Shown one piece after another: positions 14,541 through 29,055 of a DNA stretch of 64,000 nt (within the stretch, counting starts at the first letter, position 1; every line of letters begins with the position of its first letter). Where the stretch lies: contig CAVOQQ010000001.1 of assembly GCA_963698395.1 (NCBI GenBank), positions 68,754 through 132,753 of the forward strand, read 5' to 3'. A program made the translations under genes and the position numbers. The stretch is from an uncultured Acidimicrobiales bacterium. Its GTDB lineage: Bacteria; Actinomycetota; Acidimicrobiia; Acidimicrobiales; SZUA-35. The notes under the pieces were generated by a model. That model searched no databases, was not told the origin of the DNA, and was given only the letters and a program-made list of their open reading frames with translations.

Positions 14541-15302
14541 TCATCGAAGCGACGGGTTGTTGGCGGGCTTGCCGCCGCGGAGCAGCAGCCAAAGTCCCAT
14601 CCAACCTTCGGCGATGACCGAGGGGGCAGCGACCATGATGATGAACGCTGTCTCGTAGTCGGCGTAGTTACCGAGGAGACTGTGGGCGACGGTGTCGATG
14701 ACGTATGCCGCACCGGCGGTGATGAGGGCGTACCCGAGCATCCTGGGTGCAGAGCGGGTTCGAAGGATGAGCCCGCCGAGGGTGATGAGGTGGACGCCGA
14801 ATGCTGCGAGGCCGATCAACCATGCAGAGTTGAACGTGTCGAGCGCAACCAGCGCCTGCGCTTCTCGTTGGGTCGTGTCGAACGACTCCAAGAAGCTCGA
14901 ACCGCTCAGGAACTGCAGTGCCTGGAAGAAGTAGACGAGGGCGACGCCGAGGAACACGGTGTACACGAGTCGGAACCAGGCGGCGACGAGCGACACGTCT
15001 CGGTTGGCTCGTCGGAACACGATGTAGAGGGCCCACGCAACGACGACGTCAACGAGGAAGATGACGAGGAAGCTGGCCATGCCGACTCGGAACAGTCCTT
15101 CGGATTCGGCGATGTTCGCTGCAGTCGTCTGGGCATCGTCGGTGATGACGAGACCCTCTCTGACGAAGAAGTTGGCGAACACCGCCAGCACGAACAGAAC
15201 CACATAGCCGATGCCGGCGACAACGGCAGCGGTTCGCGGGTTGGTGTCGGAGCGGTCTGCCGCTGTTGGCTGGATCGTCGGGTCGAGGGTGTCGAGGCTC
15301 AT
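14541..15302 (-). CDS. DUF4386-like integral membrane protein
   Basis: ATG 15302 with a 4-nt overlap on the upstream stop. About 253 aa, multi-TM (FANFFVREGL, SAPRMLGYALI). The first 46 codons of the listed ORF are His/Arg-rich and overlap the previous gene. Confidence 0.7.
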   Translation of the reverse strand: MSLDTLDPTIQPTAADRSDTNPRTAAVVAGIGYVVLFVLAVFANFFVREGLVITDDAQTTAANIAESEGLFRVGMASFLVIFLVDVVVAWALYIVFRRANRDVSLVAAWFRLVYTVFLGVALVYFFQALQFLSGSSFLESFDTTQREAQALVALDTFNSAWLIGLAAFGVHLITLGGLILRTRSAPRMLGYALITAGAAYVIDTVAHSLLGNYADYETAFIIMVAAPSVIAEGWMGLWLLLRGGKPANNPSLR

Positions 15303-15526
15303 GTCGGTGTTCCTTCCGTGGGGTCGGGTGCGGCTGCATCGGTTCGGTGTCGGTAGAGCGAGTACGGAATCAACGCCGTGGTGATCCACATGGTGATGGG
15401 CCATGCCCTGTCGCCGCTGTCGATGATGACGGCGGCCCAAATCACCGAAGCAGCGACGAAGGCAATCTCGCTGCGGGTGCGCAGAAAGCGCCGACGCGGC
15501 GGGTTGGTGTCGGTGGCGTTCGTCAT
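15299..15526 (-). CDS. small membrane protein, no family recognised
   Basis: 75-aa ORF with two hydrophobic segments. 4-nt start/stop overlaps with both neighbours (15523-15526, 15299-15302). Confidence 0.45.
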   Translation of the reverse strand: MTNATDTNPPRRRFLRTRSEIAFVAASVIWAAVIIDSGDRAWPITMWITTALIPYSLYRHRTDAAAPDPTEGTPT

Positions 15527-16566
15527 GGCTTCACCGTGATGACGGTCTTGCCGGTGGCCCGGCCGGCGGCGAGTTGGCGCATCGCCTCAGGAACCTCGGT
15601 GAGATCGAAGCGTTGGCCGATCACCGGTGTGACCTGGCCCTGGTCGATGAACTCGGCCAGCTGTTCGATCAGCGTGTGGTGCACGGACGCAATGAACATC
15701 GTCAATCGCTGGCTGATGAAGGGTGAGAGTGCCACCGCCCAGAGCTGACGGCCGATGCCGCCGGTGAAGCGGTTGCCGTCCTCGCCGCCGACGATCACGA
15801 GCGTGCCCTTCTTGGTCAGCGCACGGCGGAGTCGGGAGACGCTGCGACGCCCGCCGATGTCGATGATGAGGTCGTACTCGCAGAGCCCGTCGGCGAAGTC
15901 GGTATTCGTGTAGTCGATGACGTGATCAGCACCGAGCGAACGGACCATCTCGAGCTTCGGGGTGCTCGCAACGCCGGTGACCTCGGCTCCGAGTGCCTTG
16001 GCCAGCTGCACCGCGTACGTACCGACCCCGCCTGAGGCGCCGATCACCAGCACCCGTTGGCCTGGCTCCACACGGCCCACGTCGACGAGGGCTTGAAGGG
16101 CGGTGATCCCCGACACGGGAACGATGGCTGCTTGTTCGAAGCTCAAGTTGCCGGGCTTGGCGGCAAGGCTGTCCTCTGCGGCGGTTGCGAATTGGGCGAA
16201 CGATCCTTTGGCGGCGCCGAACACTTCGTCGCCCTCGGCGAAACGAGTGACGGCCGAACCGACTGCGACGACGACACCGGCGACATCCAGGCCGGGGATC
16301 CGGTTCTTGGGTTTCGTGATCCCGTAGCCGGCGAGGCGGACAAGGTAGGGACGCCCCGTCATCAGGTGCTCGGTGCCGCGGTCGATGCCGGCAGCGTGGA
16401 CTTCGATCAGGACCTCGTCGTCGGCGATGGTGGGACGTTGGGTCATCTCGAGACGCAGGACCTCGGCGGTGCCGTAGCCGTCTTGCACGACGGCCTGCAT
16501 GAGCGATTGCTGCTGCGAGCCGGCGCTGGCTGAGCGTTCCTCGGGGAGGGTGGGGGTGGTGGTCAT
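15523..16566 (-). CDS. NADPH:quinone oxidoreductase / zinc-type MDR oxidoreductase
   Basis: Intact 347 aa with GASGGVGTYAVQLAK and the MDR fold pattern. Confidence 0.85.
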   Translation of the reverse strand: MTTTPTLPEERSASAGSQQQSLMQAVVQDGYGTAEVLRLEMTQRPTIADDEVLIEVHAAGIDRGTEHLMTGRPYLVRLAGYGITKPKNRIPGLDVAGVVVAVGSAVTRFAEGDEVFGAAKGSFAQFATAAEDSLAAKPGNLSFEQAAIVPVSGITALQALVDVGRVEPGQRVLVIGASGGVGTYAVQLAKALGAEVTGVASTPKLEMVRSLGADHVIDYTNTDFADGLCEYDLIIDIGGRRSVSRLRRALTKKGTLVIVGGEDGNRFTGGIGRQLWAVALSPFISQRLTMFIASVHHTLIEQLAEFIDQGQVTPVIGQRFDLTEVPEAMRQLAAGRATGKTVITVKP

Positions 16567-16660
16567 TGGCAGTTCTCCGTTGTCGATGCCCGTGGTTCTG
16601 GCAATTGGCTTGGAGAAAGCGTCGTCGACCGACAGGTGAGACCGCCTCGTAGGGACCGGA

Positions 16661-16678
16661 ATCTCACCTGGGTGAGGT
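16661..16678. promoter_or_regulatory. 18-bp palindrome, copy 1 (candidate LuxR-type operator)
   Basis: ATCTCACC-tg-GGTGAGGT. Lies 2 nt beyond the LuxR stop and about 95-110 nt upstream of the qor-like start (16566). Extra GGTGAGA half-site at 16635-16641. Confidence 0.5.
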
Positions 16679-16679
16679 A

Positions 16680-18887
16680 TCAGAGCAGACCCAGATCCCG
16701 GGCGGTCTGGACAGCGGCTTTGCGGTTGCCGACGGCGAGCTTGCGGTAGATCGCCGTGCAGTGCGTCTTCACCGTGTTCGGGGAGACGAACAGTTCGCCG
16801 GCGATCTCGCGCTGCGACAGTGCGGTTGGCAGATAGCGGAGCACCGCCGTTTCCCGTTCGGTCAGTTGCTCGATGATCGCTTGCGTCTCCGCCGCGGTTG
16901 CGGCGATGGCGTGTCGAGACTCGATGCGGTCCAGATAGCGAGCAACGATCCCCGGGTCAGGGCAGCGGTCGACCACGATGCGAGCTTCAGCCAGGAGTTC
17001 CAGCCCGACGGGGTCTGCGGCATCCAACAGCACATCGCCGCACATGGTCAGAACGTGTGCCAGCGCCAGGTCGCCGGTGGTTCGCTTTGCCGACTCGACA
17101 GCCCGGCGAGCATCGGCAACGGCTTCGGGACCCTCACCGGTTCGGGCCCGGACGGCGTAGGCCGGACCGAGCCGTTGATAGGAGGCGAGCCCCAACGCTT
17201 CGGCGGTCGCAATGGCATGCATCGCCCGCTCTCTCGCTGCAGCCAGATCCCCCGCATCGAATTCCACAAGCGCCTGATAGATCAGGCTGAGAAGGTGGAC
17301 CGCATTGTTGTCGGTGTTCTCTGTCTTCTCGACGGCGACGTTGAGGACCGCACGTGCATCCTCGGTCTGGCCGGCCCACATGTGGGTTCCCCCGGCGACC
17401 GCGGCGATGTTGGCCAACTCGATCCGAACCGATCGAAGTCGGTCGAGATCTGAGCACTCCCGAGCGATCACCAGCGCCGGCTGGACATCACCGCGGCCGA
17501 GCAGGATGTTCATTCGTAGCGGGGCGGTGGCGATGTGATCGAACCCGTCCGGGGCGATGTCGTGCGTCACCTCCACCCATCGTTCCGCCGAGTCGAACCG
17601 GCCGGCGCTGTATTCACACCAACCCCAGAGCAACGAGCAGATGGTGTCGGTTTCGGCAGCGTCACCGAGCTGAACCAGGATGCCCCGTAGCGTCTCGATC
17701 TGGTTGTCGGCGATGAGTCGAGGACCCAGCACAGTCATGAGGCGAGCGGCTTCCTCACGATCACCGGCGTGCAGGTAGTGGACGACGGCTCGGTCGTGGT
17801 CGCCTTCGGATTCGAACCATGCGGCGGCGCGCCGATGGAGCCCCGGCAGCTGATCGGGGATGCTCGTTTTCGCTTCGAGGCGGAGCAGATCCCGCAGGAG
17901 ATGGTGGTACCGGTACCACTCACCGGTGCGATCCAGTCCGATGACGAGTTGGTTCTCCGAGGCTGTCTCGTTCAGCCACGTCGCGCCGTCGGTGGAATCG
18001 CAGAGGGCATCGACCAATGGTCCGCTCATCTGCTCGAGGATCGAGGTGGTGAGCAATCGATGCAGATGGTCGGGGTTGACCCCGGCAAGGAACTCGTCGC
18101 TCAGATAGTCGACGACGAAATGATCGTCGCCGTGGAACCCCTGAACGAACCTCGACGCGTCCGGCACCTGCGCCATGGAGAGTCGTGCCAGTACCAGACC
18201 GGCCGCCCATCCTTCGGTCCTGTCCGAGAGCAACTCGATCTCTTCGGCATCAAGCGGGCCTCTTCCCGCCCCGAGCAGGTTCGCCGCTTCGGTCGGCTGG
18301 AATCGCAGCCCATCGCTGCGCACCTCGAGCAGATGACCGCGGACCCGTAAACGGCCGAGTCGGAACGGAGGATCGAATCGGGTCGAGATCACAACAGTCA
18401 CCTGCGGCGGACACAACTCGACCAGCCGCTCCATTCCGTGGTGGATGGCATCGTTGGTGATGAGGTGGTAGTCATCGACGACGATCACGAGCGAACGGTC
18501 GTGGCCGGCCAGTGCGGTGATGAGCGTCGAGATGACCATGTCGTCGTCATCATCGGTCGAGGCGAGCACTGCGGGTTTCACTGCGGCTCGCACGCTCGGC
18601 AGGACCTCGCTGATCGCTTCGACGAGGTATGCCCAGAAACGGGCTGGGTCGTCGTCGCCTTCCTCGACCTGCAGCCAAGCCGCTGGCTCCGTGCGACGGG
18701 CCAGCCACGATGCCACGAGCGTCGATTTGCCGGAACCTGCCGGTGCGCTCACCAGCACCAGTCGAGCGTGCGCGTCAACACCGGTATCGAGGATGTCATC
18801 GAGTCGAGCCCGCTGAACGAGCGCATCAGGCAGGGTGGGAGGCCGCAACTTGGTGGCGGCGAGGCTGAGGTTCAACGCTCCGTCCAC
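16680..18887 (-). CDS. LuxR-family regulator of the large ATP-binding (LAL/MalT-like) type
   Basis: Intact 735 aa. Walker A SAPAGSGKST, a central helical-repeat region and a C-terminal HTH REIAGELFVSPNTVKTHCTAIYRKL. Confidence 0.85.
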   Translation of the reverse strand: MDGALNLSLAATKLRPPTLPDALVQRARLDDILDTGVDAHARLVLVSAPAGSGKSTLVASWLARRTEPAAWLQVEEGDDDPARFWAYLVEAISEVLPSVRAAVKPAVLASTDDDDDMVISTLITALAGHDRSLVIVVDDYHLITNDAIHHGMERLVELCPPQVTVVISTRFDPPFRLGRLRVRGHLLEVRSDGLRFQPTEAANLLGAGRGPLDAEEIELLSDRTEGWAAGLVLARLSMAQVPDASRFVQGFHGDDHFVVDYLSDEFLAGVNPDHLHRLLTTSILEQMSGPLVDALCDSTDGATWLNETASENQLVIGLDRTGEWYRYHHLLRDLLRLEAKTSIPDQLPGLHRRAAAWFESEGDHDRAVVHYLHAGDREEAARLMTVLGPRLIADNQIETLRGILVQLGDAAETDTICSLLWGWCEYSAGRFDSAERWVEVTHDIAPDGFDHIATAPLRMNILLGRGDVQPALVIARECSDLDRLRSVRIELANIAAVAGGTHMWAGQTEDARAVLNVAVEKTENTDNNAVHLLSLIYQALVEFDAGDLAAARERAMHAIATAEALGLASYQRLGPAYAVRARTGEGPEAVADARRAVESAKRTTGDLALAHVLTMCGDVLLDAADPVGLELLAEARIVVDRCPDPGIVARYLDRIESRHAIAATAAETQAIIEQLTERETAVLRYLPTALSQREIAGELFVSPNTVKTHCTAIYRKLAVGNRKAAVQTARDLGLL

Positions 18888-18927
18888 TTGATCCCCTTTC
18901 CAACAGAGCCTCGACGGTCGGCCACGA

Positions 18928-18945
18928 ATCTCACCTGGGTGAGAT
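18928..18945. promoter_or_regulatory. 18-bp palindrome, copy 2 (perfect arms)
   Basis: ATCTCACC-tg-GGTGAGAT. Lies 41 nt upstream of the LuxR ATG (18887) and 49 nt upstream of the divergent start 18994. Confidence 0.55.
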
Positions 18946-18993
18946 CACGCCTCGGACGAGGCGACGCAGCGATTGGTCCTTCACCGTAGAGGT

Positions 18994-19230
18994 ATGACCG
19001 AACCAACCACATACGAAATCGCCTTGAGAGGCAACGTCGGATCCCGATCGCTGCGACCGCTCATCGACGACTTCAGGATCACCGAGTCCGAGCCAGGCAT
19101 CACCCGGCTCGTCGGCATCATCCGAGATTCGTCTCAGATGCACGGCCTCGTCGCCCACCTCTCCTCGATGGGTCTCGACCTCCTCTCCATCGTCCCGACC
19201 GATTCCACAGCGAAGGAAACCCAGCGATGA
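18994..19230 (+). CDS. small cytoplasmic protein, no family recalled
   Basis: ATG 18994; 78 aa MTEPTTYEIALRGNVGSRSLRPLIDDF..MHGLVAHLSSMGLDLLSIV. Its stop overlaps the next start (19227-19230). Confidence 0.55.
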   Translation: MTEPTTYEIALRGNVGSRSLRPLIDDFRITESEPGITRLVGIIRDSSQMHGLVAHLSSMGLDLLSIVPTDSTAKETQR

Positions 19231-19562
19231 CAAACCCAGCCCCCTCCCCACACCCGCACGCCGATGAGCGCACCGAGGAAGAACGCGTCCAAGCGGCTCG
19301 GCGATACGTGGAGCAGGTGCAAGCCTTCTCCGTCCACGCCGGCGTGTTCACCGCAGGCATGGTCGTCATCTTCGTGGTGAATCTCGCCACCAACGTTTCC
19401 GCCGGCATCGCAAGCGAGTGGTCCGCGTGGTGGTCGGTCTGGGCCTTCATCGGCTGGGGCCTTGGCATCGCGATCCACGGACTCGTCGTCCGCCTGAACC
19501 GACCATCGCCGTCCTCGCCGACGTGGGAGCAGCGACAGATCGAGAAGGTGCTGTCCAGATGA
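19227..19562 (+). CDS. 2TM-domain membrane protein
   Basis: 111 aa with AFSVHAGVF..VVNL and WWSVWAFIGWGLGIAIHG, matching the 2TM-domain pattern. Confidence 0.65.
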   Translation: MTNPAPSPHPHADERTEEERVQAARRYVEQVQAFSVHAGVFTAGMVVIFVVNLATNVSAGIASEWSAWWSVWAFIGWGLGIAIHGLVVRLNRPSPSSPTWEQRQIEKVLSR

Positions 19563-20164
19563 GCGCACCAATCCTTGACGTAGCATGCCCTCCGACGTCG
19601 AAGGTGTCCGACACCCCGCTCTGGGAGGGGCGAGCCTTTGGTGGGATCGTCCTTGCTGCCTTCCTGCTCTACGGCATCGGCAGCGCAACCGCCGATCGAC
19701 CGATCGGCCTCGCACTGGTGGCCGTCAACTCGATCGCTGTCGCTTCCGCTGGTTTGATTGGCTTCCGGCTCGTCCGAGTCGCCGACCGCAACGTCGGTAT
19801 CGGCTACCTGGTGGCCCGTGTCGCCGAAGCGGTCCTGCTCCTGGGCGGGATCGTGATGGCGGAGTTCGCCGATGTCGGCGACGCCGACAACAAGGGCTAC
19901 CTGCTCGCCATGATCGCACTCGCCGTCGGCAGCATCCCGTTCTGTCGAACGCTGGGACGAGGTCGACTGATTCCTCGACCGCTCGCAACCTGGGGGATCT
20001 ATGGGTACGCCGCACTCGCCATCGGCGCCGTCCTCGAACTGGCGACCGGGCGTTCGCTCGCGGTCGTCTTCGCTCCGCCTGGTGGCCTCTTCGAGTTCGT
20101 GCTTGGGCTGCGCCTGATCTGGCGGGGGTTCGACCATCGCATGACGACTGGCCGCACCCCATGA
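19559..20164 (+). CDS. DUF4386-like membrane protein (short form)
   Basis: ATG 19559 overlapping the upstream stop. 201 aa, 4-5 TM; GRGRLIPRPLATWGIYG resembles the DUF4386 LIPR motif. The first 47 aa of the listed ORF are discounted. Confidence 0.6.
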   Translation: MSAPILDVACPPTSKVSDTPLWEGRAFGGIVLAAFLLYGIGSATADRPIGLALVAVNSIAVASAGLIGFRLVRVADRNVGIGYLVARVAEAVLLLGGIVMAEFADVGDADNKGYLLAMIALAVGSIPFCRTLGRGRLIPRPLATWGIYGYAALAIGAVLELATGRSLAVVFAPPGGLFEFVLGLRLIWRGFDHRMTTGRTP

Positions 20165-20517
20165 CACTCGCTGAGCACGTCAATCGTCGAAACGGCGTCC
20201 CCGCGGGCCCCGCCGCCATGGCGACGTTCGTCGTCTCGGGTTTGTGCACGATGTCGCAGCGTTGCTCGTCTGGGGCTCTGTGGTGTTCGTCGTGACACCG
20301 TGGTTCTTCCTGCTCGGGGTCGGCATGGTCGTTGGACACGTGGTCGGGATGGATATGTCGCTGCGGCCCTGGTGGTGGCGGTAGAGGGCAAACACTGCGT
20401 ATCTCGGGTCGAGCCTCGCTGTGGTCCTGGTCATCCGTTCCCTCGTCGGACACCCCTGATCTTCGGCTCTGGCACCGCGCCTGCAGCGTCGAACGTGCCG
20501 ACACAGGCCAACGGACT

Positions 20518-20535
20518 GAATCACCTGGGTGAGAA
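20518..20535. promoter_or_regulatory. 18-bp palindrome, copy 3
   Basis: GAATCACC-tg-GGTGAGAA, 69 nt upstream of ATG 20604. Extra GGTGAGG half-site at 20546-20552. Confidence 0.45.
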
Positions 20536-20603
20536 CACACCGACGGGTGAGGTCGTCTCGTCCTTGCTTGATCGAAGCTGAGTCCGGAAAGGAGCACACC
20601 CCA

Positions 20604-21335
20604 ATGAGGACAATGACCCGAATCCCGCAACCCGGACGGTGGAGCGGTGAGCAACGACTTTCAGATCTCGGTCGCAACATTGCGGCCTTCATCGTCTTGT
20701 GGGCTGCGTACGCCGCTGTGCGTGGCATCACCGCCGGCGACCTCACGTCCGCAACGCGGAACGCCGTGGCTGTCATGGACCTTCAACGATCGCTCGGGCT
20801 CCCGAACGAGGCAGCAGTGCAACGAGCCCTGCTCGACCATTCCTGGCTCCTACGAGGCGCCAACTTCTACTACATCGGGGTCCACTTCCCGGTGACGATC
20901 GGCTTCCTGGCGTGGGCGTGGTCGCGTCACCGCGCTGTCTTTCAGCGGATCCGGAATGCTCTCATCATGACGACCAGTGTGGGTCTCGTGGTTCATGTGA
21001 TGTACCCGCTGAAGCCACCGCGAATGATCGGCGGCTTCGTCGACACGGCGGCCGTGCTCGGACCCGATCCCTACGAACTCGGTATCTCGGGCGGAGCGAA
21101 CCAGCTCGCCGCCATGCCCTCCCTCCACGTTGGCTGGGCCTTGCTCGTGGCGCTCGGCATCATCGCAACCGGGAAGACCAACGCCAAGTGGCTCGCCGTG
21201 GTGCATCCGATCGTGACACTCGCGGTCGTCGTCGTGACGGCCAATCACTACTGGGTCGACGCCATCGTCGCGGTGGCGATCGTGCTCGCAGCGTGGCGCC
21301 TCACGCAGCGCAGCGAACCAAAGCACCTGTTGTGA
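20604..21335 (+). CDS. PAP2-superfamily (PAP2_3-like) membrane protein
   Basis: ATG 20604 behind GGAAAGGAG. 243 aa, multi-TM, with MPSLHVGWALL and TANHYWVDA. Confidence 0.7.
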   Translation: MRTMTRIPQPGRWSGEQRLSDLGRNIAAFIVLWAAYAAVRGITAGDLTSATRNAVAVMDLQRSLGLPNEAAVQRALLDHSWLLRGANFYYIGVHFPVTIGFLAWAWSRHRAVFQRIRNALIMTTSVGLVVHVMYPLKPPRMIGGFVDTAAVLGPDPYELGISGGANQLAAMPSLHVGWALLVALGIIATGKTNAKWLAVVHPIVTLAVVVVTANHYWVDAIVAVAIVLAAWRLTQRSEPKHLL

Positions 21336-21840
21336 TGCTCGAGAGCTTCGTCCGGCCGACGGGACGTGCCATCACCACCAAGACGACGGCGAGGGTCCGC
21401 CGAGGCCATCGACGCGATCGTGGCGCTGCCGCGTCGGCCGGGCCGGCGGCCGGGGCCGCGTCGGTCTCGACAGCTGACCGGATCTCGGCGATTGCCGTGA
21501 ACGGCAGCAGGGCCACGAGGGTGATGGCAGCGAGACGAAGCGGCGCCCAGTCATCGTCGAGATCCCCGTGATCGGCGAGGAGGCCTCCGACGGCGGCACC
21601 CAGCATCACGAGCGGGTAGAAAGCGCTCGAAGGCTCGTACCAGCGACGGTTCTGTCGGTAGCGAGGACGAAGCCCGGCGTCGTCGAACCCGTCGCCGCCC
21701 TTCGATCGCAGGGCCGTGGCCACGGCGATGGGGAGCAGGATCCAGATGAGTTGACCGAGTCCCTCACCGATCCCGTGGCCAGCGGTGTGGTCGATCAGGG
21801 GGCCAAGCCACCCCAGCCCGAGTACCGCGGCGTCGTACAC
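21301..21840 (-). pseudogene. CPBP (CAAX-protease)-like N-terminal fragment
   Basis: The first ~125 aa resemble CPBP N-termini up to ..LLPFTAIAE, where the EExxxR motif should follow. The rest is low-complexity and overlaps the convergent PAP2 gene. Confidence 0.3.
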
Positions 21841-21990
21841 GGCGATGCGGGTGGGAGAGGGACCCGAGATCGCTCGTTGCCTGGGGATCGACTTCTGTTG
21901 TGATCACGTTGGCCTCCCTGGCTCGTGGCGTCGCTGTCGGTGAAGGCAGCTTCGGGGAGGGTGGTGTGAACCGTCGTCGCTCGTCGGGTG

Positions 21991-22008
21991 ATCTCGCCCG
22001 GGTGAGGC
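21991..22008. promoter_or_regulatory. 18-bp palindrome, copy 4 (degenerate)
   Basis: ATCTCGCC-cg-GGTGAGGC. Lies 74 nt beyond the truncated LuxR stop and about 150 nt upstream of start 21840. Confidence 0.4.
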
Positions 22009-22081
22009 ATGGGGCGCTGGCAGCAGGTGCGGTGTAACGGCCGGCGCTGAACCGCAGTGTGCGCCTGGAGTCCAGCCGTCG

Positions 22082-22810
22082 TCAGAGGAGGTGGAGATCT
22101 CGTGCCGCTTGAACGGCCGCCTTGCGGTCGCCGACGCCGAGCTTGCGGTAGATCGCCTTGCAGTGGGTCTTGACGGTGTTGAGCGACACGTACAGCTCTG
22201 ACGCAATGTCTCGCTGGGAGAGCTGTGATGACAGAGACCGCAGCACAGCGAACTCTCGGTCCGTCAGCTCCTCGATCAGCTGAGGCATCGTCGCTCGAGC
22301 CGGCGTTGCGTCGATCTGATGGCGCGCCTCGACGAGCGCCAGGTACCGGCCGGCGATGCCCGGATCAGGACAGCGATCGATGATCGACCTCGCATCGTGC
22401 AACATGGCTTCTCCGTCGGGGTGGCCGTGGTGGCAGAGCACGTCGCCCCCGCTGGCAAGGGCGTAGGCCAGCATGATCTTCTCCGGAGACCTTCGGGCCA
22501 GTGTGACACCGCGTCGGGCGGTGACGATCGCTTCGTCGGACGCCGTGCCCGTTCTGGCGACCATGCTGTGGGCGAGAGCGGTTTGAGCCAGCTCACTGAA
22601 GCCGTTCGTGTTCGCCGTTTCGATTGCTTGCGATGCGTGTCGGCGAGCAGCGTCGATGGCGCCTGATTCGATCTCGGCGATCGCTCGGAAGATGGGTGCA
22701 ACGGTTTCGACGAAGGCGTTGCCTTCCCGTGCGGCAAAGGTTTGGGCCCGCGCGAGCAGCGTGGTGGCGCGGTCGAAGTCGCCACCCCATCGGAGCGACC
22801 CGTGATCACC
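22082..22810 (-). pseudogene. 5'-truncated paralog of the LAL-type LuxR regulator (helical repeats + HTH only)
   Basis: Collinear with the last ~240 aa of the 735-aa protein (SLRWGGDFDRATTLLARA, IIDRCPDPGIAGRYL, REFAVLRSLSSQLSQRDIASELYVSLNTVKTHCKAIYRKL). No ATPase domain. The frame opens directly after the WYL gene stop (22925). The first ATG is only at 22564. Confidence 0.6.
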
Positions 22811-22924
22811 GTGGTCCGGGTGTCGGATCCGGGGGTGTGGCCGAGGTGTGCGAACGAAGCGTACGAACGAGGTGCGCTCACACCTCGACGGCCTCGCGTC
22901 GCGGAGACGCAGCCGCTGCGAGCC

Positions 22925-23894
22925 TCAGCGGTCCGTCGAGCAGTTCTCGGCGAGTTGTCTGACGGTGTCGGCGAGTTCGGCTGGCTCGATGACCGCCACG
23001 GGGGCGGTGAGCGCGATGCGGGCGATGGACATGGCGAGCCGACCGAGGTCCTCGCCGCGGATCTGGACCACACACGACTCGGTCTCCAGCTGGATTGGTC
23101 GTGTGGTCCACCCATCGCAGCACGTCCTCGAGTTCGGTGAACGCCGCGCTGATCGAGAGCGTCGCTTCTTCGTGACGTGGTGTCGATCCGAGTGAGGTTG
23201 CGACGAAGCTTGCTGCGTCGCCACCGGGGATCTCCCGTGGCCTGAAACGTTTGCCCGCCAGCCGAGGTTTGCGGAGCCGATCGAGTCGAAACGTACGCCA
23301 GTCGTCGCGTCGCTGATCCCAGGCCACGAGATACCAGCGACGGCCGGTGGTCACGAGTTGGTGTGGCTCGACGAGCCGTCGGCTGTCTTCGCCGTCACGT
23401 CGTCGGTAGTCGAATCGCACCTCCTCGCTGGTCTCGACACGCCGCAGCGAGCACGCTGAGCGCTTCGGGATCGATGAGTCGTCGTCGTCGACCCGCGGCA
23501 TCGACATGACGCTCGAATGCAGCGCCGACACTCGCCGGCGCAAGCCGATCGGGCAGGAGCTGATTCGATCTTCGTCAGGGATCGAAGCGACGATTCTTCC
23601 ATGCCGTCGATCGCCGCTCCTGCGGCGTAGCGCAGACCAACGGCCACGGCGACGGCCTCGTCATCGTCGAGCACCAGAGGGCGGCAGGTGCGCTCCGGTT
23701 GCGAGGCGGTAGCCGCCGTCGGTTCCCGGCGTGGCATCGACGGGGTAGCCGAGGTCGCGCAGCCGCTCGACGTCACGGCGAACCGTTCGCTCGGTGACCT
23801 CGAGGCGTTCGGCGAGTTCGGCTCCTCGCCACAAACGATGCGTTTGAAGGAGCGAGAGCAGCTGGAGCGCCCGGCCGGTGGGATCTTTCGGCAT
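22925..23894 (-). pseudogene. YafY-type HTH-WYL transcriptional regulator, 3-4 frameshifts
   Basis: Five blocks each lie in a different frame. MPKDPTGRALQLLSLLQTHRLWRGAELAERLEVTERTVRRDVERLRDLGYPV. LVLDDDEAVAVAVGLRYA. QLLPDRLAP..LIDPEALSVLAAA. EEVRFDYRRRDGEDSRRLVEPHQLVTTGRRWYLVAWD..FRLDRL. CVVQIRGEDLGRLAMSIARI. Confidence 0.65.
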
Positions 23895-23987
23895 TTTCTC
23901 AGTCTGCCACAACTTGCGGACCGATTCTGTCCGGAACGGCTTCTACGTTGATCTCTACCAACCCACCGACAGATGAGAGGAAATGCC

Positions 23988-24942
23988 ATGTCAAAAACAA
24001 TCGACTTCCCCACGCCCACGCTGATTCCCGTCAACGGTGTGCAACTCGAGGTCTTCGAAGCAGGCCAAGAGAACGCGGGAAACCCGATCGTGCTGTGTCA
24101 CGGCTGGCCAGAGCACGCCTTCTCATGGCGCCACCAGCTTCCGGCCCTCGCCGCAGCCGGCTACCACGTCATCGTCCCGAACCAGCGGGGCTATGGGAAC
24201 TCGAGTCGTCCGTCCGACGTCACCGACTACGACATCGACCACTTGACGGGTGATCTCGTCGCCTTGCTCGATCACTTCGGATACGAAGACGCAACCTTCG
24301 TCGGACATGATTGGGGCGCGAATGTCGTTTGGGGGCTGACCCAGCTGCATCCAGACCGCGTCAAGAGGGTGATCAACCTGAGCTTGCCGTACCAAGAGCG
24401 CGGGGAGCAGCCTTGGATCGAGTTCATGGAAGTCGGTCTTTGGTGACGACTTCTATTTCGTCCACTTCAACCGTCAGCCCGGCGTCGCGGACGCCGTACT
24501 CGACGAGAACACCTTCCAGTTCCTACGCAACATGTATCGGAAGAACACTCCCCCCGCAGAGCCTGAGCCGGGGATGATGATGATCAATCTCGCCAGAGCG
24601 GAAACGCCACTCGGAGAGCCGGTGATGAGTGACGACGAACTGGCCGTCTTCGTGTCCGCCTTCGAAACAACCGGGTTCACCGGCAGTGTCAATTGGTACC
24701 GAAACATGGACCGGAACTGGCACCTGCTGGCGAATGTCGACCCGATCATCCAACAGCCCACACTCATGATCTACGGGGACCAGGATCCCATCGCGAAGTC
24801 CGAGAACCTGCAGGACTTCGTACCGAACGTGGAGGTGGTCAGTCTCGACTGCGGTCATTGGATCCAGCAAGAGAAGCCAGAAGAAACGACCCGAGTGATC
24901 CTGGACTGGTTGGAACAACACGGCGGAGACGCAAGTCGTTGA
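23988..24942 (+). pseudogene. epoxide-hydrolase-like alpha/beta hydrolase, one frameshift
   Basis: ATG 23988. VLCHGWPEHAFSWRHQLPALAAAGYHVIVPNQRGYGNS and GHDWGA read to 24446. FGDDFYFVHFNRQPGVAD..DCGHWIQQEKPEE continues in the 24532 frame. Shift near 24435. Confidence 0.7.
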
Positions 24943-24964
24943 GACGAGGTGGTCAAAGGGCAGA

Positions 24965-25100
24965 GGTTGTGTGCGACCTTGGACATCGCGTTGGCGAGCG
25001 CAGCGATCTCCGCAGCGTCGAGGTGGTCGAACAGTTCCGTGCCGCTCTGGCGAGACTCGGCGATTCCGTCGAGGTACTCGTATGAGCACCGCGACCGAAC
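24965..25100 (-). pseudogene. MarR-like C-terminal remnant
   Basis: ..YEYLDGIAESRQSGTELFDHLDAAEIAALANAMSKVAHNL resembles only the last helices of a MarR protein. No N-terminus is present. Confidence 0.3.
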
Positions 25101-25162
25101 TCCGCGCCGGCACCTGGACGCTCGACCCAACCACCACCACGCTCACCGCGTCCGCCAGGTAG
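25082..25162 (+). pseudogene. YceI-like N-terminal remnant
   Basis: MSTATELRAGTWTLDPT.. matches the start of YceI-like proteins but stops after 26 codons. Confidence 0.3.
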
Positions 25163-25205
25163 TCGACGAGCTCATGGACTCCCGGCGCCGACTTGGCCTG
25201 GCTCG

Positions 25206-25895
25206 TCAGGGGTCGATGCCGGTGCCTGGGTCGACGGAGCCGGGTTTGACGATGCTGCTCTCGTAGGCGAGTACGACGGCTTGGACGCGGTCTCGTACGC
25301 CGAGTTTGGTGAGGAGCCGGCTGACGTGGGTCTTCGCGGTTGCTTCTCCCACGAACATCTCGGCGGCGATTTCCCGGTTGCTCATCCCTCGGGCGAGCAG
25401 TCGGAGCGCCTCGTGCTCACGATCGGCGAGACTGTCGGGAAGCACGAGGTTGGTCTCGGTCACCTCGGGTTGCCTTGCGAACTCTTCGATGAGTCGCTTG
25501 GTCACGGTCGGGGCCAGCAATGCGTTGCCTTCGGCGATGACCCGCACCGCGGCTGCGAGTTCCTTGGCCGGGGTGTCCTTGAGGAGGAAGCCACTGGCAC
25601 CGGCCCGCATGGCGGCATAGACGTACTCGTCGAGGTCGAACGTGGTGAGCACCAGGACCTTGGTATCGATGGCGGGCTCGTCGGTGATGAGTCGGGTTGC
25701 CTCGATGCCGTCCATCTCGGGCATCCGGATGTCCATGATCGCGACGTCAGGGTTGGTGCGGCGGCAGAGCTCGAGTCCGGTGCGGCCGTTGTCGGCGTCG
25801 CCGACGACCTCGAGGTCTGGTTGGGCGTCGAGAATCATGGTGAACGCGTCGCGCATCAGGGCTTGATCGTCGATGACCGCAACTCGGATACTCAT
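25206..25895 (-). CDS. NarL/FixJ-family response regulator
   Basis: ATG 25895 (4-nt overlap with the kinase remnant). 229 aa. Receiver domain VAVIDDQALMRD..DVAIMDIRMPEMDG plus HTH NREIAAEMFVGEATAKTHVSRLLTKLGV. The upstream 179 aa of the listed ORF are Arg/Pro-rich read-through. Confidence 0.85.
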   Translation of the reverse strand: MSIRVAVIDDQALMRDAFTMILDAQPDLEVVGDADNGRTGLELCRRTNPDVAIMDIRMPEMDGIEATRLITDEPAIDTKVLVLTTFDLDEYVYAAMRAGASGFLLKDTPAKELAAAVRVIAEGNALLAPTVTKRLIEEFARQPEVTETNLVLPDSLADREHEALRLLARGMSNREIAAEMFVGEATAKTHVSRLLTKLGVRDRVQAVVLAYESSIVKPGSVDPGTGIDP

Positions 25896-26443
25896 GCCGG
25901 TGCCGTGGTCTCGGGTTCTGCGGAGACCACCGCCGGCCGGTCGGTGGCGGTATTGGTCGGCAGGGAGGCATCGACCCGGTAGTCGCCGCCCGGTCGTGGC
26001 CCGGCGGCGAGTTGCCCGTCGTAGGTCTCGACGCGTTCGCGCATCCCGATGATGCCGTGGCCGCCTCCGGTGTCGGTGAGCTGCGACACGGCCCCGCAGC
26101 CCGTGTCGTTGATCGTGATGTGGAGGGCGTCGGTTTCGTAGCGCAATTCGACGGTGGCGGTGGCGGCGTCGCCACCGTGCTTGACGACGTTGGTGAGGGC
26201 TTCTTGCACGATCCGGAACGCAGCGAGTTCGATTCCCGGAGGGAGTGGCCGCTCGTCTCCGCGGATGATCAGTTCGGTCGGTGTGCCCGCCTGGGTGCAG
26301 TGGGCGATGGTGGTGTCGAGTTCGGCGAGCGACGGTTGGGGCGTCAGCGCGCCGCGAGCGGCGGTGGCTTCGGATGGGTTGTTGTTGCGAGGGTCGGACC
26401 GGACGACCGGGTCGGACCGCCCCAGCTGCCACAGACCGTTCAC
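25892..26443 (-). pseudogene. sensor histidine kinase remnant (HATPase_c part only)
   Basis: AAFRIVQEALTNVVKHG, DTGCG and GGHGIIGMRERV are present. The frame closes about 60 nt upstream, next to the ArsR-like gene. No HisKA_3 H-box and no TM sensor. Confidence 0.65.
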
Positions 26444-26503
26444 TGCGCGAAGCGGAGATCGTCCGCCAACGCCGGCTCGAGAGCAGCGCGGACCGACCGG
26501 ACG

Positions 26504-27043
26504 TCAGCCATTCCTTGTGTGGTCGTCGGGCATGGTGATGGTGCTGAGGATTCGTCGGCGTCTTCCGGGCGTTGGGGCGTTGTTCTCATGTGCCTGGACC
26601 GCGGTCGCCACGGTGGCGGCGAGTGTGTCGAATTCTTCGTCGGTGAGCCAGAGGGCTGCTTGGCGGTAGCCGACGCGATCGCGACCCAGGGCGGGCTTGC
26701 CTCGGTCCAGGTAGGCGGCGAAGTCGGTGAGAAGGGTGCCGACGAATGTGGCGAAGTAGCGGAAGTGGTCATCGGCGTTTGCTGACTCCAGTTCGCTGTC
26801 ACCGAGCGCCACTGACGTGTTGACGACTCGGTAGGTGCGTTCGACTCCGCCACGGATCGACCGCTCCTCCGTGACCTCGATCAGCCCGCCGTCGGCGAGT
26901 TGTTTGATGTGCCGGTACAGCGTCGCTTGTGCCACATCGCCCAGCTGCTCCTTCAGTTCGAGAGGGGTCATGGGGGTGGCAACGAGGGCCTGCACGATGC
27001 GCAGTCGTATCGGGTGGAGGAGCAGGTCTCGGGTTTCGATCAT
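26504..27043 (-). CDS. ArsR-type winged-helix transcriptional regulator
   Basis: ATG 27043. MIETRDLLLHPIRLRIVQALV..PLELKEQLGDVAQATLYRHIKQLADGGLIE; 179 aa. Confidence 0.75.
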   Translation of the reverse strand: MIETRDLLLHPIRLRIVQALVATPMTPLELKEQLGDVAQATLYRHIKQLADGGLIEVTEERSIRGGVERTYRVVNTSVALGDSELESANADDHFRYFATFVGTLLTDFAAYLDRGKPALGRDRVGYRQAALWLTDEEFDTLAATVATAVQAHENNAPTPGRRRRILSTITMPDDHTRNG

Positions 27044-27069
27044 CGAAAGTTCTCTCGCCAGGTTGTCAT

Positions 27070-27089
27070 TGTTATCAATAGTGATAACA
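27070..27089. promoter_or_regulatory. perfect inverted repeat, candidate ArsR-type operator
   Basis: TGTTATCA-atag-TGATAACA, AT-rich. Lies 27 nt upstream of ATG 27043 and 47 nt upstream of GTG 27136. A second small inverted repeat CTATT-gag-AATAG is at 27096-27108. Confidence 0.55.
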
Positions 27090-27135
27090 TTCCCACTATT
27101 GAGAATAGCTCGCCTGGTCGGGAAGGACAACGACG

Positions 27136-28075
27136 GTGACCGAATCAGAAATCTCCATTCCTGCGGGGACGCTCACACTTCAGGGATCGCTGAAGGTGGG
27201 GGGCCCGAGCCCCGGTCCCGCGGCTCTCCTGATCAGTGGATCAGGGCCCATCGACCGGGACTCCAACGCCAAGCGGTTGTCGATCAACGTCATGGGTCAG
27301 ATCGCGACCGCACCTCGAGGCCGAGGGCATCACGTCGCTCCGCTACGACAAACGCGGTGTGGGTCGCAGCGATGGGGACTACCTGTCTGCCGGCTTTCGC
27401 GACAACGTCGATGACGCGCGGGCCGCGCTCGACGCGCTGCGAGCCCGATCCGAGGTCGACCCGGACCGGGTCGTCGTCATCGGCCACAGTGAGGGGGCAC
27501 TCATTGCGTCCCTGCTCGCTTCGGATGAGCAGCTCGCAGGTGTCGTCCTGCTCGCCGGCGCAGCCACCAACGGCAAGGACCTACTCCGATGGCAGGCACG
27601 ACAGGTGGCAGCAACGCTGCCCCGGCCGGTGAAGTGGCTCATGACGTTGCTCCGACAAGACCTCGTACGAACACAGACGAAGCGACTCGCTCGAATCGAG
27701 TCCTCGACCGAAGACGTGATCCGCATCCAGTTCGTGAAACTCAACGCCAAGTGGTTCCGCGAGTTCATGACGTTCGAACCACTCGATGCGCTACGGCGGG
27801 CGGCGGTCCCGGTGCTCGCGATCACCGGCACGAAGGACATCCAGGTCAATCCGGACGACGTGTCGCTGATGGAACAGGCGGTCTCGACACCCTTCACCGG
27901 TCATCTGGTCGACGACGTCACCCATCTCCTGCGGGCCGAGCAGGGGATCGCCTCGGTGCGTACCTACAAGAAGCAGGCGCGCGAGCCGCTCGATCAACGA
28001 GTCACCGAACTCCTCACCGACTGGGTGACCACCCATACCCACGCCAAGAACGGAGCCAGCAATGGCAACCTATGA
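27136..28075 (+). pseudogene. alpha/beta hydrolase, one frameshift
   Basis: GTG 27136 behind GGAAGGA. LLISGSGPIDRDSNAKRLSINVMGQIA, then HLEAEGITSLRYDKRGVGRS..VIGHSEGA in the 27236 frame. Shift near 27305. Confidence 0.65.
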
Positions 28076-28401
28076 CGACGAAGTGGTGACCCTCGACGAG
28101 ATCGGGATCACCGTGAAGAACTACTACCTGCCCGGTCGGCCTCGGCTGCATCCGATACGACGACATCGTGGCTGTCGAGTCGATCCCACTTGGGTTCGGC
28201 ACCGGCCGACACCAACTCGTCGGCATCGGCCCGCTCCGGCCTCAGACCTTCTTCCATTGGGACCGCAAGCGCTCCGCCAAGTCACGCGCTCTGTCGCTCG
28301 ACCTCGGCCACCGACTCCGAGTTGCCATCACGCCGGATGAACCCGACGAGGTGCTCGCGATCATTCGTGCCTCTTCAGCCCGAGTGCAGGGTGCCCCATA
28401 G
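28062..28401 (+). pseudogene. hypothetical protein, one frameshift
   Basis: MATYDDEVVTLDEIGITVKNYYLPGR (28062 frame) continues as IRYDDIVAVESIPLGFGTGRHQLVGIGPL..FFHWDRKR (28168 frame). Shift near 28145. No family recalled. Confidence 0.45.
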
Positions 28402-28796
28402 AAGCCTCGTGCGGTCTTTGGGAATGGTCCAAGGCGTCGGATCGAGAACCCGTTCCGGTGACGGCTACGCGGTTGGTGTCGGGGAGCGGATCGATCGGGT
28501 TCGGAACCCAGCGGTGAATCGCTGCCCGCTGGTTGTCGGGTGAGACCGTCGACGCCATCTAGACCTTCGAAGACGAGGTCGTTCTGCTTCTTCGTTGCGA
28601 GATAGGGGTGAGGTCGGGGGGAGGCAGATCCGCAGGAACGAACAGGTGCTGATGTGGTAGGCGTCGGTCATCGCGACGAGGACATTGACGTCGAGCGCGA
28701 CCACGCCGATCGACACGCCCTTTATTCGCCTCGCCCAAAGGAGGAGATTCTCCCCAATGCCGGGTGCACCGAGTCGTTTCCGTTGGCCGATGGATT

Positions 28797-29055
28797 TCAG
28801 CCGAGAGGTAGGAGCGCTCGGACGATTGAACCGTTGCTGCTCGACGTGATGTCGACGGATCCGCCGATCTCGGCGGCTCGCTCGCGCATGGAGGACATGC
28901 CGACGCCGGGCACCCAAGGATTGTCTGAGGAGCCCGTGTCGCGGACGATCACTTCGATGTGCTCATTTTCGTGATTGATCTGTATCCAGACCTGGTCGGT
29001 GCCGCTGTGTCGCGCCGAGTTCGTCACGGCCTCGGTGGCGATCCTTCGGGCGGGG
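28797..29055 (-). pseudogene. sensor histidine kinase C-terminal fragment
   Basis: PARRIATEAVTNSARHSGTDQVWIQINHENEHIEVIVRDTGSS..GVGMSSMRERAAEIGGSVDI is the last ~85 aa of a NarL-type kinase. Nothing kinase-like lies upstream. Confidence 0.6.

Follow-up and report, generated by a model that had tools for sequence, protein, structure and literature searches.

Four copies of an 18-bp palindrome lie in a 64-kb window (64,000 nt; contig CAVOQQ010000001.1, positions 68,754 to 132,753) of DNA from an uncultured Acidimicrobiales bacterium. The boxes are very probably the operators of the regulator encoded beside them, a 735-residue MalT-like member of the large ATP-binding LuxR-type regulators (LAL). 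For this uncharacterised subfamily of LAL regulators, the boxes and the genes that they precede amount to a real prediction of operator and regulon, with good support. A candidate regulon had been proposed by a first-pass annotation of the window, and it now draws support from orthologous promoters, independently retrieved loci, an intergenic bias, and co-variation between the box and the recognition helix of the regulator. The main addition is a conserved small-protein partner and a promoter layout shared across phyla. The window DNA is about 65% G+C and its closest relatives are uncultured Acidimicrobiia. The four copies are as follows.

16661–16678, unstranded: copy 1, ATCTCACCTGGGTGAGGT, with 1 mismatch to the 18-bp consensus
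18928–18945, unstranded: copy 2, ATCTCACCTGGGTGAGAT, a perfect 18-bp palindrome in the divergent LAL/small-gene promoter region
20518–20535, unstranded: copy 3, GAATCACCTGGGTGAGAA, with 4 mismatches at outer positions and an exact inner 12-mer
21991–22008, unstranded: copy 4, ATCTCGCCCGGGTGAGGC, degenerate, with 3 mismatches

Scans of the window with the 18-mer, the 12-mer, and a position weight matrix (PWM) confirm that the palindrome occurs four times and that all copies are intergenic. The 18-mer search recovers copies 1, 2, and 4; copy 3 escapes at ≤3 mismatches because of its four mismatches in the outer arms. The inner 12-mer TCACCTGGGTGA is exact in copies 1, 2, and 3 (starts 16664, 18931, and 20521), and the degenerate core of copy 4 starts at 21994. 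With ≤1 mismatch the 12-mer gives 11 strand-matches against 1.8 expected, a number reached in none of 100 shuffles. The PWM was built from sites of the window clade, with copy 4 left out of the training set. It places the four copies as the top four, at 33, 29, 21.5, and 17.7 bits, followed by a score of 12.5, and reveals no additional site in the window. The best of 50 shuffles scores 17.4 bits, barely below copy 4, which makes this copy marginal on sequence alone.

Copy 2 is the best-supported of the predicted operators. As described in the first pass, it is perfect and lies between the LAL gene and a divergent operon, separated by 40 nt from the start of LAL (GTG, 18887) and by 48 nt from that of a small gene (ATG, 18994). 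Its inner 12-mer ends 51 nt before that ATG. A single nucleotide separates copy 1 from the stop codon of LAL (16680–16682), and the qor ATG (16566) follows 97 nt downstream of this copy, in agreement with its proposed position upstream of a qor/DUF4386 operon. From the end of copy 3 it is 68 nt to the ATG of a PAP2_3 gene (20604), and copy 4 is found 73 nt past the stop of an open reading frame (ORF) of LuxR type.

A lone half-site is present at 28538–28560, in a 395-bp gap between convergent ORFs. It is followed by GACCGTCGA, a string that also occurs upstream of the LAL gene (reverse complement of 18910–18918: GGGTGAGACCGTCGAC). This half-site may be a promoter remnant or a chance occurrence.

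Conservation of the box

The LAL protein was used to query a collection with one genome per species, yielding 80 loci. A scan of metagenomes with the small protein provided a second entry that is independent of the LAL query. Motif counts refer to the window and the LAL-centred loci, 1.42 Mb of DNA. This set contains 57 exact copies of TCACCNNGGTGA, compared with about 1.5 expected by our own base-composition estimate, which is not a tool result. The centre is CG in 40 of the 57 sites.

The first-pass annotation had set conservation in orthologous intergenic regions as a test of its proposal. Among Acidimicrobiia loci with available upstream DNA, whose LAL proteins are 47–83% identical to that of the window, TCACC-N1-2-GGTGA is found about 50 nt upstream of the LAL gene in 19 of 19 cases, three of which have a 1-nt centre in place of 2 nt. 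Copies 1, 2, and 3 are retained at orthologous positions in loci L015 and L081 (copy 3 at L015:8441 and L081:7226), and copies 1 and 2 in L001, L084, and L085. In the metagenome loci, the exact box ends 48–55 nt before the small-gene ATG in 57 of 65, and a divergent LAL gene is present in 55 of the 58 with enough upstream DNA. The spacing of 51–52 nt between box and ATG, like that of copy 2, is seen in 65 non-redundant relatives. Altogether, the box occupies the same position beside related regulator genes in more than 100 uncultured bacteria.

Distant LAL homologues (31–38% identity) carry a box 8–44 nt beyond the LAL stop, frequently accompanied by an upstream one. This arrangement occurs in Solirubrobacterales, Thermoleophilia, and Dehalococcoidia; a Rubrobacter clade has TCCCCTAGGGGA there instead.

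An intergenic enrichment, which the first pass had proposed to test genome-wide, is also present in this set of loci. In the 1.42 Mb, 76 of 96 matches fall in the 29% of DNA called non-coding. The ORFs were called by a crude method based on G+C content at third codon positions, which over-extends starts and calls some spurious antisense ORFs, so that the coding/intergenic split is conservative. Most of the "coding" matches are artefacts of this caller or have non-consensus centres. As an operator should be, the box is over-represented, biased towards non-coding DNA, and conserved at orthologous promoters while the flanking non-coding DNA diverges.

Exact-protein look-ups for LAL and the small protein found no record. 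Full-text literature searches for the box sequences returned unrelated primers only and no paper mentioning the box, and keyword searches found no description of this LAL subfamily.

Site anatomy and promoter layout

The general consensus is (T/A)TCACC-CG-GGTGA(A/T), a palindrome of 7-2-7-like form. The window clade extends it to ATCTCACC-YR-GGTGAGAT, and the palindrome is only 12–14 bp long in other clades. The CCTGGG centre of the earlier consensus holds in the window but is a clade variant; the general centre is CCCGGG. Spacing is strict. Inverted half-sites have a single enriched gap, 2 nt, where 54 sites compare with a background of about 4. For everted half-sites, GGTGA-N7-TCACC, the one enriched gap is 7 nt, with 33 sites and a background of about 5.

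The first-pass reading, centred on the palindrome, needs refining, since the site is multipartite. Three clades from two phyla, namely Ilumatobacteraceae, Solirubrobacterales (L025, L029, and L032), and a Dehalococcoidia locus (L035), have N10-11, GGTGA(A/G)G, N5, and (T/C)TCACCC, in this order, after the palindrome. The GGTGA(A/G)G element is invariant and follows the palindrome by 11 nt in relatives. The corresponding elements in the window are listed here together with a hexamer near the small gene.

18948–18963, plus strand: second inverted repeat, CGCCTC-GGAC-GAGGCG, directly after copy 2
16635–16651, minus strand: extra half-sites beyond copy 1 in the qor direction, ACGAGGCG (16644–16651) and TCTCACC (16635–16641), conserved in L015 and L001
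20545–20554, plus strand: third half-site of copy 3, GGGTGAGGTC, starting 9 nt past the 18-mer
18982–18987, plus strand: CACCGT, a −10-like hexamer at −12 to −7 of the small-gene ATG

The 3′ arm of the second inverted repeat, ACGAGGCG (18956–18963), constitutes the third half-site of copy 2. In L015 and L001 this repeat keeps its stem, with a variable loop. The window clade has a degenerate third half-site, (A/G)(C/T)GAGGCG, 13–14 nt after the palindrome at the qor, small-gene, and PAP2 promoters, and 16 nt after it on the LAL side. Copy 4 has a weaker one, ACGAGCG, 9 nt after the palindrome. The extra GGTGAG half-sites noted earlier at copies 1 and 3 are present (16635–16640 and 20546–20551) and are explained as part of this conserved third half-site.

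A GACnGT/CACCGT hexamer is conserved at −12 to −7 of the small-gene ATG in the 65 non-redundant promoters, none of which has a Shine–Dalgarno sequence before the small gene. The small-gene transcript is therefore probably leaderless, in which case the palindrome centre would lie near −57 and the third half-site near −37 of the small-gene start. A scan for the sigma-70 consensus found no promoter, and the promoter model thus rests on the conserved −10-like hexamers. On the LAL side, a TAnGTT box is located 8 nt from the palindrome in Ilumatobacteraceae, and the GTG start follows 6–7 nt beyond. The palindrome therefore overlaps the LAL core promoter.

Two known kinds of site resemble parts of this layout and were considered and rejected. 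The everted element GGTGAA-N5-TTCACC is reminiscent of a Rex operator, TGTGAA-N4-TTCACA, which differs in flanking bases and gap; moreover, the everted element and the palindrome have identical half-sites. Restriction or methylation at CCCGGG or CCWGG was rejected on account of the position-specific conservation. In addition, a LAL gene of a group without the box is followed, just past its stop, by CTCACCC-AGGAA-GGGTGA (L054:12240-12260), which has the same half-sites with 5 nt between them. This half-site may thus serve other LAL subfamilies too, spaced differently.

Candidate regulators of the box

16680–18887, minus strand: LAL regulator, 735 aa, a MalT-like STAND (signal transduction ATPase with numerous domains) protein with TPR repeats and a C-terminal GerE/LuxR helix-turn-helix (HTH)

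The LAL gene starts with GTG at 18887, preceded by a ribosome-binding site, AAAGGGGA. The protein contains an N-terminal P-loop NTPase (nucleotide-binding oligomerization domain, NOD) with Walker A (APAGSGKST) and Walker B (VVDDYH) motifs, a central helical/TPR-like region, and a C-terminal GerE HTH, which are the defining parts of the family. Pfam matches are to AAA_16/AAA_22, TPR_MalT, and GerE (6.5e-15, residues 674–729). The TPR_MalT and TPR_12 matches are weak and below their cut-offs; the NCBIfam MalT model covers residues 10–560. Residues 11–377, which include both Walker motifs, align to E. coli MalT (8BOB, E = 3.9e-48). By sequence, LAL is a genuine MalT homologue with intact Walker motifs. 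It is not a MalT orthologue, that is, the activator of the maltose regulon, because its score against the NCBIfam MalT model (6e-95, 319 bits) is under the equivalog cut-off of 537 and its predicted targets are not maltodextrin genes. Oligomerisation and transcription activation dependent on ATP and an effector would be compatible with multiple half-sites per promoter. The half-site GGGTGA resembles the MalT box, GGA(T/G)GA, and GerE/LuxR dimers bind inverted repeats (PMC9628970).

Indirect evidence for binding comes from the recognition helix of LAL, SPNTVKTHCTAIYRKL, and its co-variation with the box. Helices of the form S(P/L/V)NTVK(T/S)(H/Q) go with the TCACC..GGTGA box. Helices of the STVR type (APSTVRTQ) go with TCCCCTAGGGGA, which has a GGGGA half-site, with no exception among the Rubrobacter-type loci scanned. 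A Rubrobacteraceae locus, L028, has a hybrid helix, TPNTVRTQ, paired with a hybrid box, TCCCCTAGGTGA (L028:12233-12244), made of one half of each type. This pairing of Lys-to-Arg with T-to-G is what direct base readout would predict. More than 30 LAL proteins with the helix SR(N/H)TVK..A have neither the box nor the small gene in the flanks scanned (350 nt upstream and 450 nt downstream). A CsoR-type site was considered for the Rubrobacter TCCCCTAGGGGA and rejected; no CsoR gene is seen in those loci, and a LAL gene consistently adjoins the box.

A different transcription factor could bind the boxes, either a response regulator of the NarL type (for example, that encoded at 25206–26432) or a global regulator, and the association with LAL would then reflect shared regulation. 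NarL-family HTH proteins also bind inverted heptamers in a 7-2-7 arrangement, and a GerE-type response regulator is encoded 3 kb away in the window. However, LAL is the only gene that always adjoins the box, across more than 100 loci of different classes, and the box sequence tracks its recognition helix. No second regulator is conserved in the flanks of the loci examined. We consider this explanation very improbable.

The small protein of 78 residues might instead bind the palindrome as an autoregulator. Its gene is co-inherited with the box, whose end is held at 51–52 nt from the small-gene ATG in 65 promoters. Some dimeric ferredoxin-like folds bind DNA, and the papillomavirus E2 DNA-binding domain is among the weak fold matches of the small protein. 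However, four loci (L025, L029, L032, and L035) retain the full box architecture and LAL and lack a homologue of the small gene, so the small protein cannot be the binder there; in L032 the box is directly upstream of an MFS transporter, and in L035 of a sulfatase. LAL is therefore the constant partner. No DNA-binding motif is recognisable in the small protein, the folds that it matches best are ligand-binding domains of the ACT/IlvN type (E ≥ 0.03), and its occasional fusion to an ABC ATPase or hydrolase suggests a partner or regulatory domain. The matched changes in the LAL helix and the half-site also speak against such a role, which is about as improbable as binding by another factor.

The least credible alternative is that the boxes are structural or mobile repeats, such as repetitive extragenic palindromic (REP) or miniature inverted-repeat transposable (MITE) elements, or RNA hairpins that act as a terminator or stabiliser after the LAL gene: copy 1 is immediately next to the LAL stop and a 7-bp stem with a 4-nt loop can form, although the 2-nt spacer had earlier been taken to exclude a hairpin terminator, but folding energies are within about 1–2 standard deviations of shuffled sequence, there is no U tract, no terminator is called at the boxes, the boxes match no Rfam family, only 12–18 bp are conserved between otherwise unrelated flanks (as the first pass had argued against REP/MITE), and the non-palindromic extra half-sites with strict start-codon spacing point to a protein site. 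An Rfam search over 14–24 kb gave one sub-threshold sRNA match, unrelated to the boxes.

Several points weigh against LAL as the regulator of the boxes. Both its predicted binding and its predicted effect on expression come from sequence comparison, and co-variation cannot formally separate LAL from another co-inherited factor. The choice between activation and repression depends on assumed leaderless starts and a weak −10-like motif. MalT uses asymmetric boxes in direct repeat and not a palindrome. The third half-sites of the window clade (ACGAGGCG) are degenerate relative to GGTGAAG in relatives. Copy 4 is statistically marginal, and the scanned DNA of the source genome amounts to 64 kb.

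With LAL as the binder, we infer how its binding, oligomer occupancy of the extra half-sites, activation or repression, and the leaderless start might fit together. Two C-terminal GerE-type HTH domains would bind the two heptamers of (T/A)TCACC-NN-GGTGA(A/T), and further subunits of the ATP-driven STAND oligomer would occupy one or two GGTGA-type half-sites 11–25 nt downstream. At the divergent promoter, a palindrome centre about 57 nt and a third half-site about 37 nt upstream of the small-gene start, combined with a weak −10, would fit activation of the small-protein/2TM/DUF4386 operon. The location of the palindrome over the LAL core promoter would fit negative autoregulation. Through copies 1 and 3, this control would extend to the qor/DUF4386 operon and the PAP2 gene, and copy 4 would be a decaying remnant of a second module.

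Predicted regulon and related systems

The genes that adjoin the four copies are listed below. Three starts were revised: those of the small gene (18994), the DUF4386 gene of the same operon (19559), and the PAP2_3 gene (20604).

18994–19230, plus strand: small protein gene, 78 aa, first gene of the divergent operon
19227–19562, plus strand: 2TM-domain membrane protein (Pfam 2TM, 3.4e-16), second gene, its start overlapping the small-gene stop
19559–20164, plus strand: DUF4386 membrane protein (Pfam DUF4386, 1e-10, 42 bits, above cut-off), third gene
14541–16566, minus strand: predicted target operon of copy 1, comprising a qor-like gene, a 30-aa ORF, and a DUF4386 gene
15523–16566, minus strand: qor-like zinc-ADH oxidoreductase (Pfam ADH_zinc_N_2/ADH_N; NCBIfam quinone_pig3, 5.7e-57)
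15437–15526, minus strand: 30-aa ORF within the qor operon
14541–15440, minus strand: DUF4386 membrane protein (Pfam DUF4386, 1e-51), its real start probably internal
20604–21335, plus strand: PAP2_3 family membrane phosphatase (Pfam PAP2_3, 4.2e-44), predicted target of copy 3
22082–22801, minus strand: C-terminal fragment of a LAL paralogue, with a partial TPR region and the GerE HTH and without the ATPase domain
21301–21907, minus strand: ORFs downstream of copy 4, of 47 aa (21764–21907) and 179 aa (21301–21840), in different frames

Pfam upholds the gene assignments of the first pass: AAA_16, TPR_MalT, and GerE in LAL, 2TM, DUF4386 twice, PAP2_3, and the zinc ADH/qor protein. The 2TM and DUF4386 genes of the divergent operon are joined by an ATGA start/stop overlap, and the 2TM gene is syntenic in L001, L015, and L081–L084. 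Synteny of the qor operon is kept in L001, L015, and L081. A ribosome-binding site, GGAAAGGAG, precedes the PAP2_3 ATG. The DUF4386 gene is separated from copy 3 by about 440 nt, which contain, at 20180–20500, only short ORFs with no family matches and one terminator-like hairpin (20278–20303).

The soluble 78-aa protein is the conserved first target gene in this prediction, and its gene adjoins LAL in 36 of the 80 genome loci. It belongs to a family with 406 cluster representatives at E ≤ 1e-3 and has no Pfam or NCBIfam family. An AlphaFold2 model (pLDDT, predicted local distance difference test, 80.5) displays a β-β-β-α-β topology, a predicted ferredoxin/ACT-like fold. Foldseek searches with the model gave no match below E = 0.03, with weak matches of the ACT/IlvN type, and a profile search of the PDB gave only an HMA-like match (E = 0.42). 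In some cases (P0054, P0040, and P0174; L018:8924-9934 and L019:5108-6157), the ferredoxin/ACT-like domain is fused N-terminally to the product of the next gene, which is an ABC ATPase, a β-lactamase-fold hydrolase, or an α/β hydrolase. The fusions hint at a regulatory or partner role, and some may be gene-calling read-throughs.

The downstream partner genes vary. They encode 2TM and DUF4386 proteins in the window clade and ABC-2 transporters in Ilumatobacteraceae. Partners elsewhere are SfLAP, a K+ channel-like protein, DUF7144, MFS, a sulfatase, cytochrome bd subunit I, SulP-STAS, GCS2, DUF6325, MpsC, and SDR proteins. These varied membrane and transport partners make the proposed "membrane-protein regulon" a fair description of the downstream genes, except that the conserved first target is soluble. 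Two Solirubrobacteraceae loci are dense in ATCACCCGGGTGAT boxes, with eight 12-mer matches (seven exact) in L060 and five (four exact) in L061, which adjoin genes for cytochrome bd subunit I, MpsC, SDR, SulP-STAS, GCS2, and DUF6325 proteins. In these loci the regulon may therefore be far more extensive and inclined towards respiration or ion homeostasis.

The geometry of copy 4 matches that of copy 1, except that the LAL before it is truncated. Both copies had been described as lying past the stops of LuxR paralogues, which holds for copy 1; the paralogue at copy 4 is a C-terminal fragment. Its tblastn match is limited to LAL residues 500–729 (46% identity), and GerE is its only Pfam domain. 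Locus L011 encodes a second LAL that is intact and accompanied by a box and small gene of its own; the fragment is 64% identical to it. The two ORFs downstream of copy 4, of which the 47-aa ORF has a ribosome-binding site and a GTG start, are probably one frameshifted gene. The CPBP-like identity given to this region is not supported; a family search found no CPBP signal, and the sole match is a weak one to Anthrone_oxy (E = 1e-3). An orthologous counterpart of copy 4 was not found. This copy is probably what is left of the operator of another LAL module that has decayed. The LAL fragment and the split ORF belong to a run of broken genes at 21301–29027. The run also includes a WYL regulator split over two frames (22878–23543 and 23351–24034), an α/β hydrolase in two pieces (23973–24446 and 24532–24942), and a C-terminal fragment of a histidine kinase (28797–29027). 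Either the genes are pseudogenes, or the breaks are frameshifts from the assembly of a metagenome-derived genome.

A broader possibility, put forward tentatively, is that LAL, the multipartite GGTGA-type operator, and the 78-aa protein as a functional partner form a widespread undescribed signalling module, spread over Acidimicrobiia, Thermoleophilia, Rubrobacteria, and some Chloroflexota. One common signal would switch on variable gene sets of membrane transport and energetics (ABC-2, MFS, SulP, K+ channel-like, cytochrome bd, PAP2, and quinone oxidoreductase). The small protein could bind a ligand and act on the STAND ATPase as a feedback effector, as MalK, MalY, or Aes does for MalT, or alternatively be a detachable regulatory subunit of the neighbouring transporter or channel.

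Beyond E. coli, a defined DNA motif is known for few regulators of the LAL/MalT type. The majority of the studied ones are specific to single pathways of Streptomyces, and their sites are poorly defined. Here the motif, spacing rules, promoter layout, and helix/base co-variation (Lys with T, Arg with G) are derived solely from uncultured genomes. The operator prediction is directly testable and makes regulons of this LAL subfamily predictable in metagenome-assembled genomes. It also offers a first functional handle on the unannotated small protein family and on the DUF4386, 2TM, DUF6325, and DUF7144 proteins.

Compared with known systems, LAL would work like a MalT-type activator on NarL-like 7-2-7 dimer sites. 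E. coli MalT, the prototype LAL/STAND activator, has the same domain order of NOD ATPase, TPR-like sensor, and GerE HTH. Its promoters also contain several boxes, to which the window half-site GGGTGA(G/A) is similar, and they share a box near −37 if the window transcript is leaderless. However, the window LAL is shorter (735 versus 901 aa) and scores 319 bits against the 537-bit cut-off. In place of asymmetric direct repeats, its main site is perfectly palindromic around 2 central nt, and its predicted targets are the small protein and membrane/transport genes rather than maltodextrin genes. With the 7-2-7 heptamer pairs of NarL/NarP and other dimer sites of the GerE/LuxR type (lux box, GerE, and TraR), the window box has in common two inverted heptamers 2 bp apart, a gap for which it shows a sharp preference, and a regulator with the GerE fold. 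By contrast, the window regulator is a STAND ATPase and not a response regulator or autoinducer receptor, and its sites add an everted arrangement with a 7-nt gap beside the palindrome. SCO6993, a Streptomyces LAL with mapped sites, likewise recognises short palindromes, both in the promoters of its targets and, as an autoregulator, in that of its own gene (PMC9628970). It differs in that its footprinted sites have no consensus among themselves or with the window box, that it represses antibiotic pathway regulators, and that no conserved small-protein partner is reported for it (PMC9628970).

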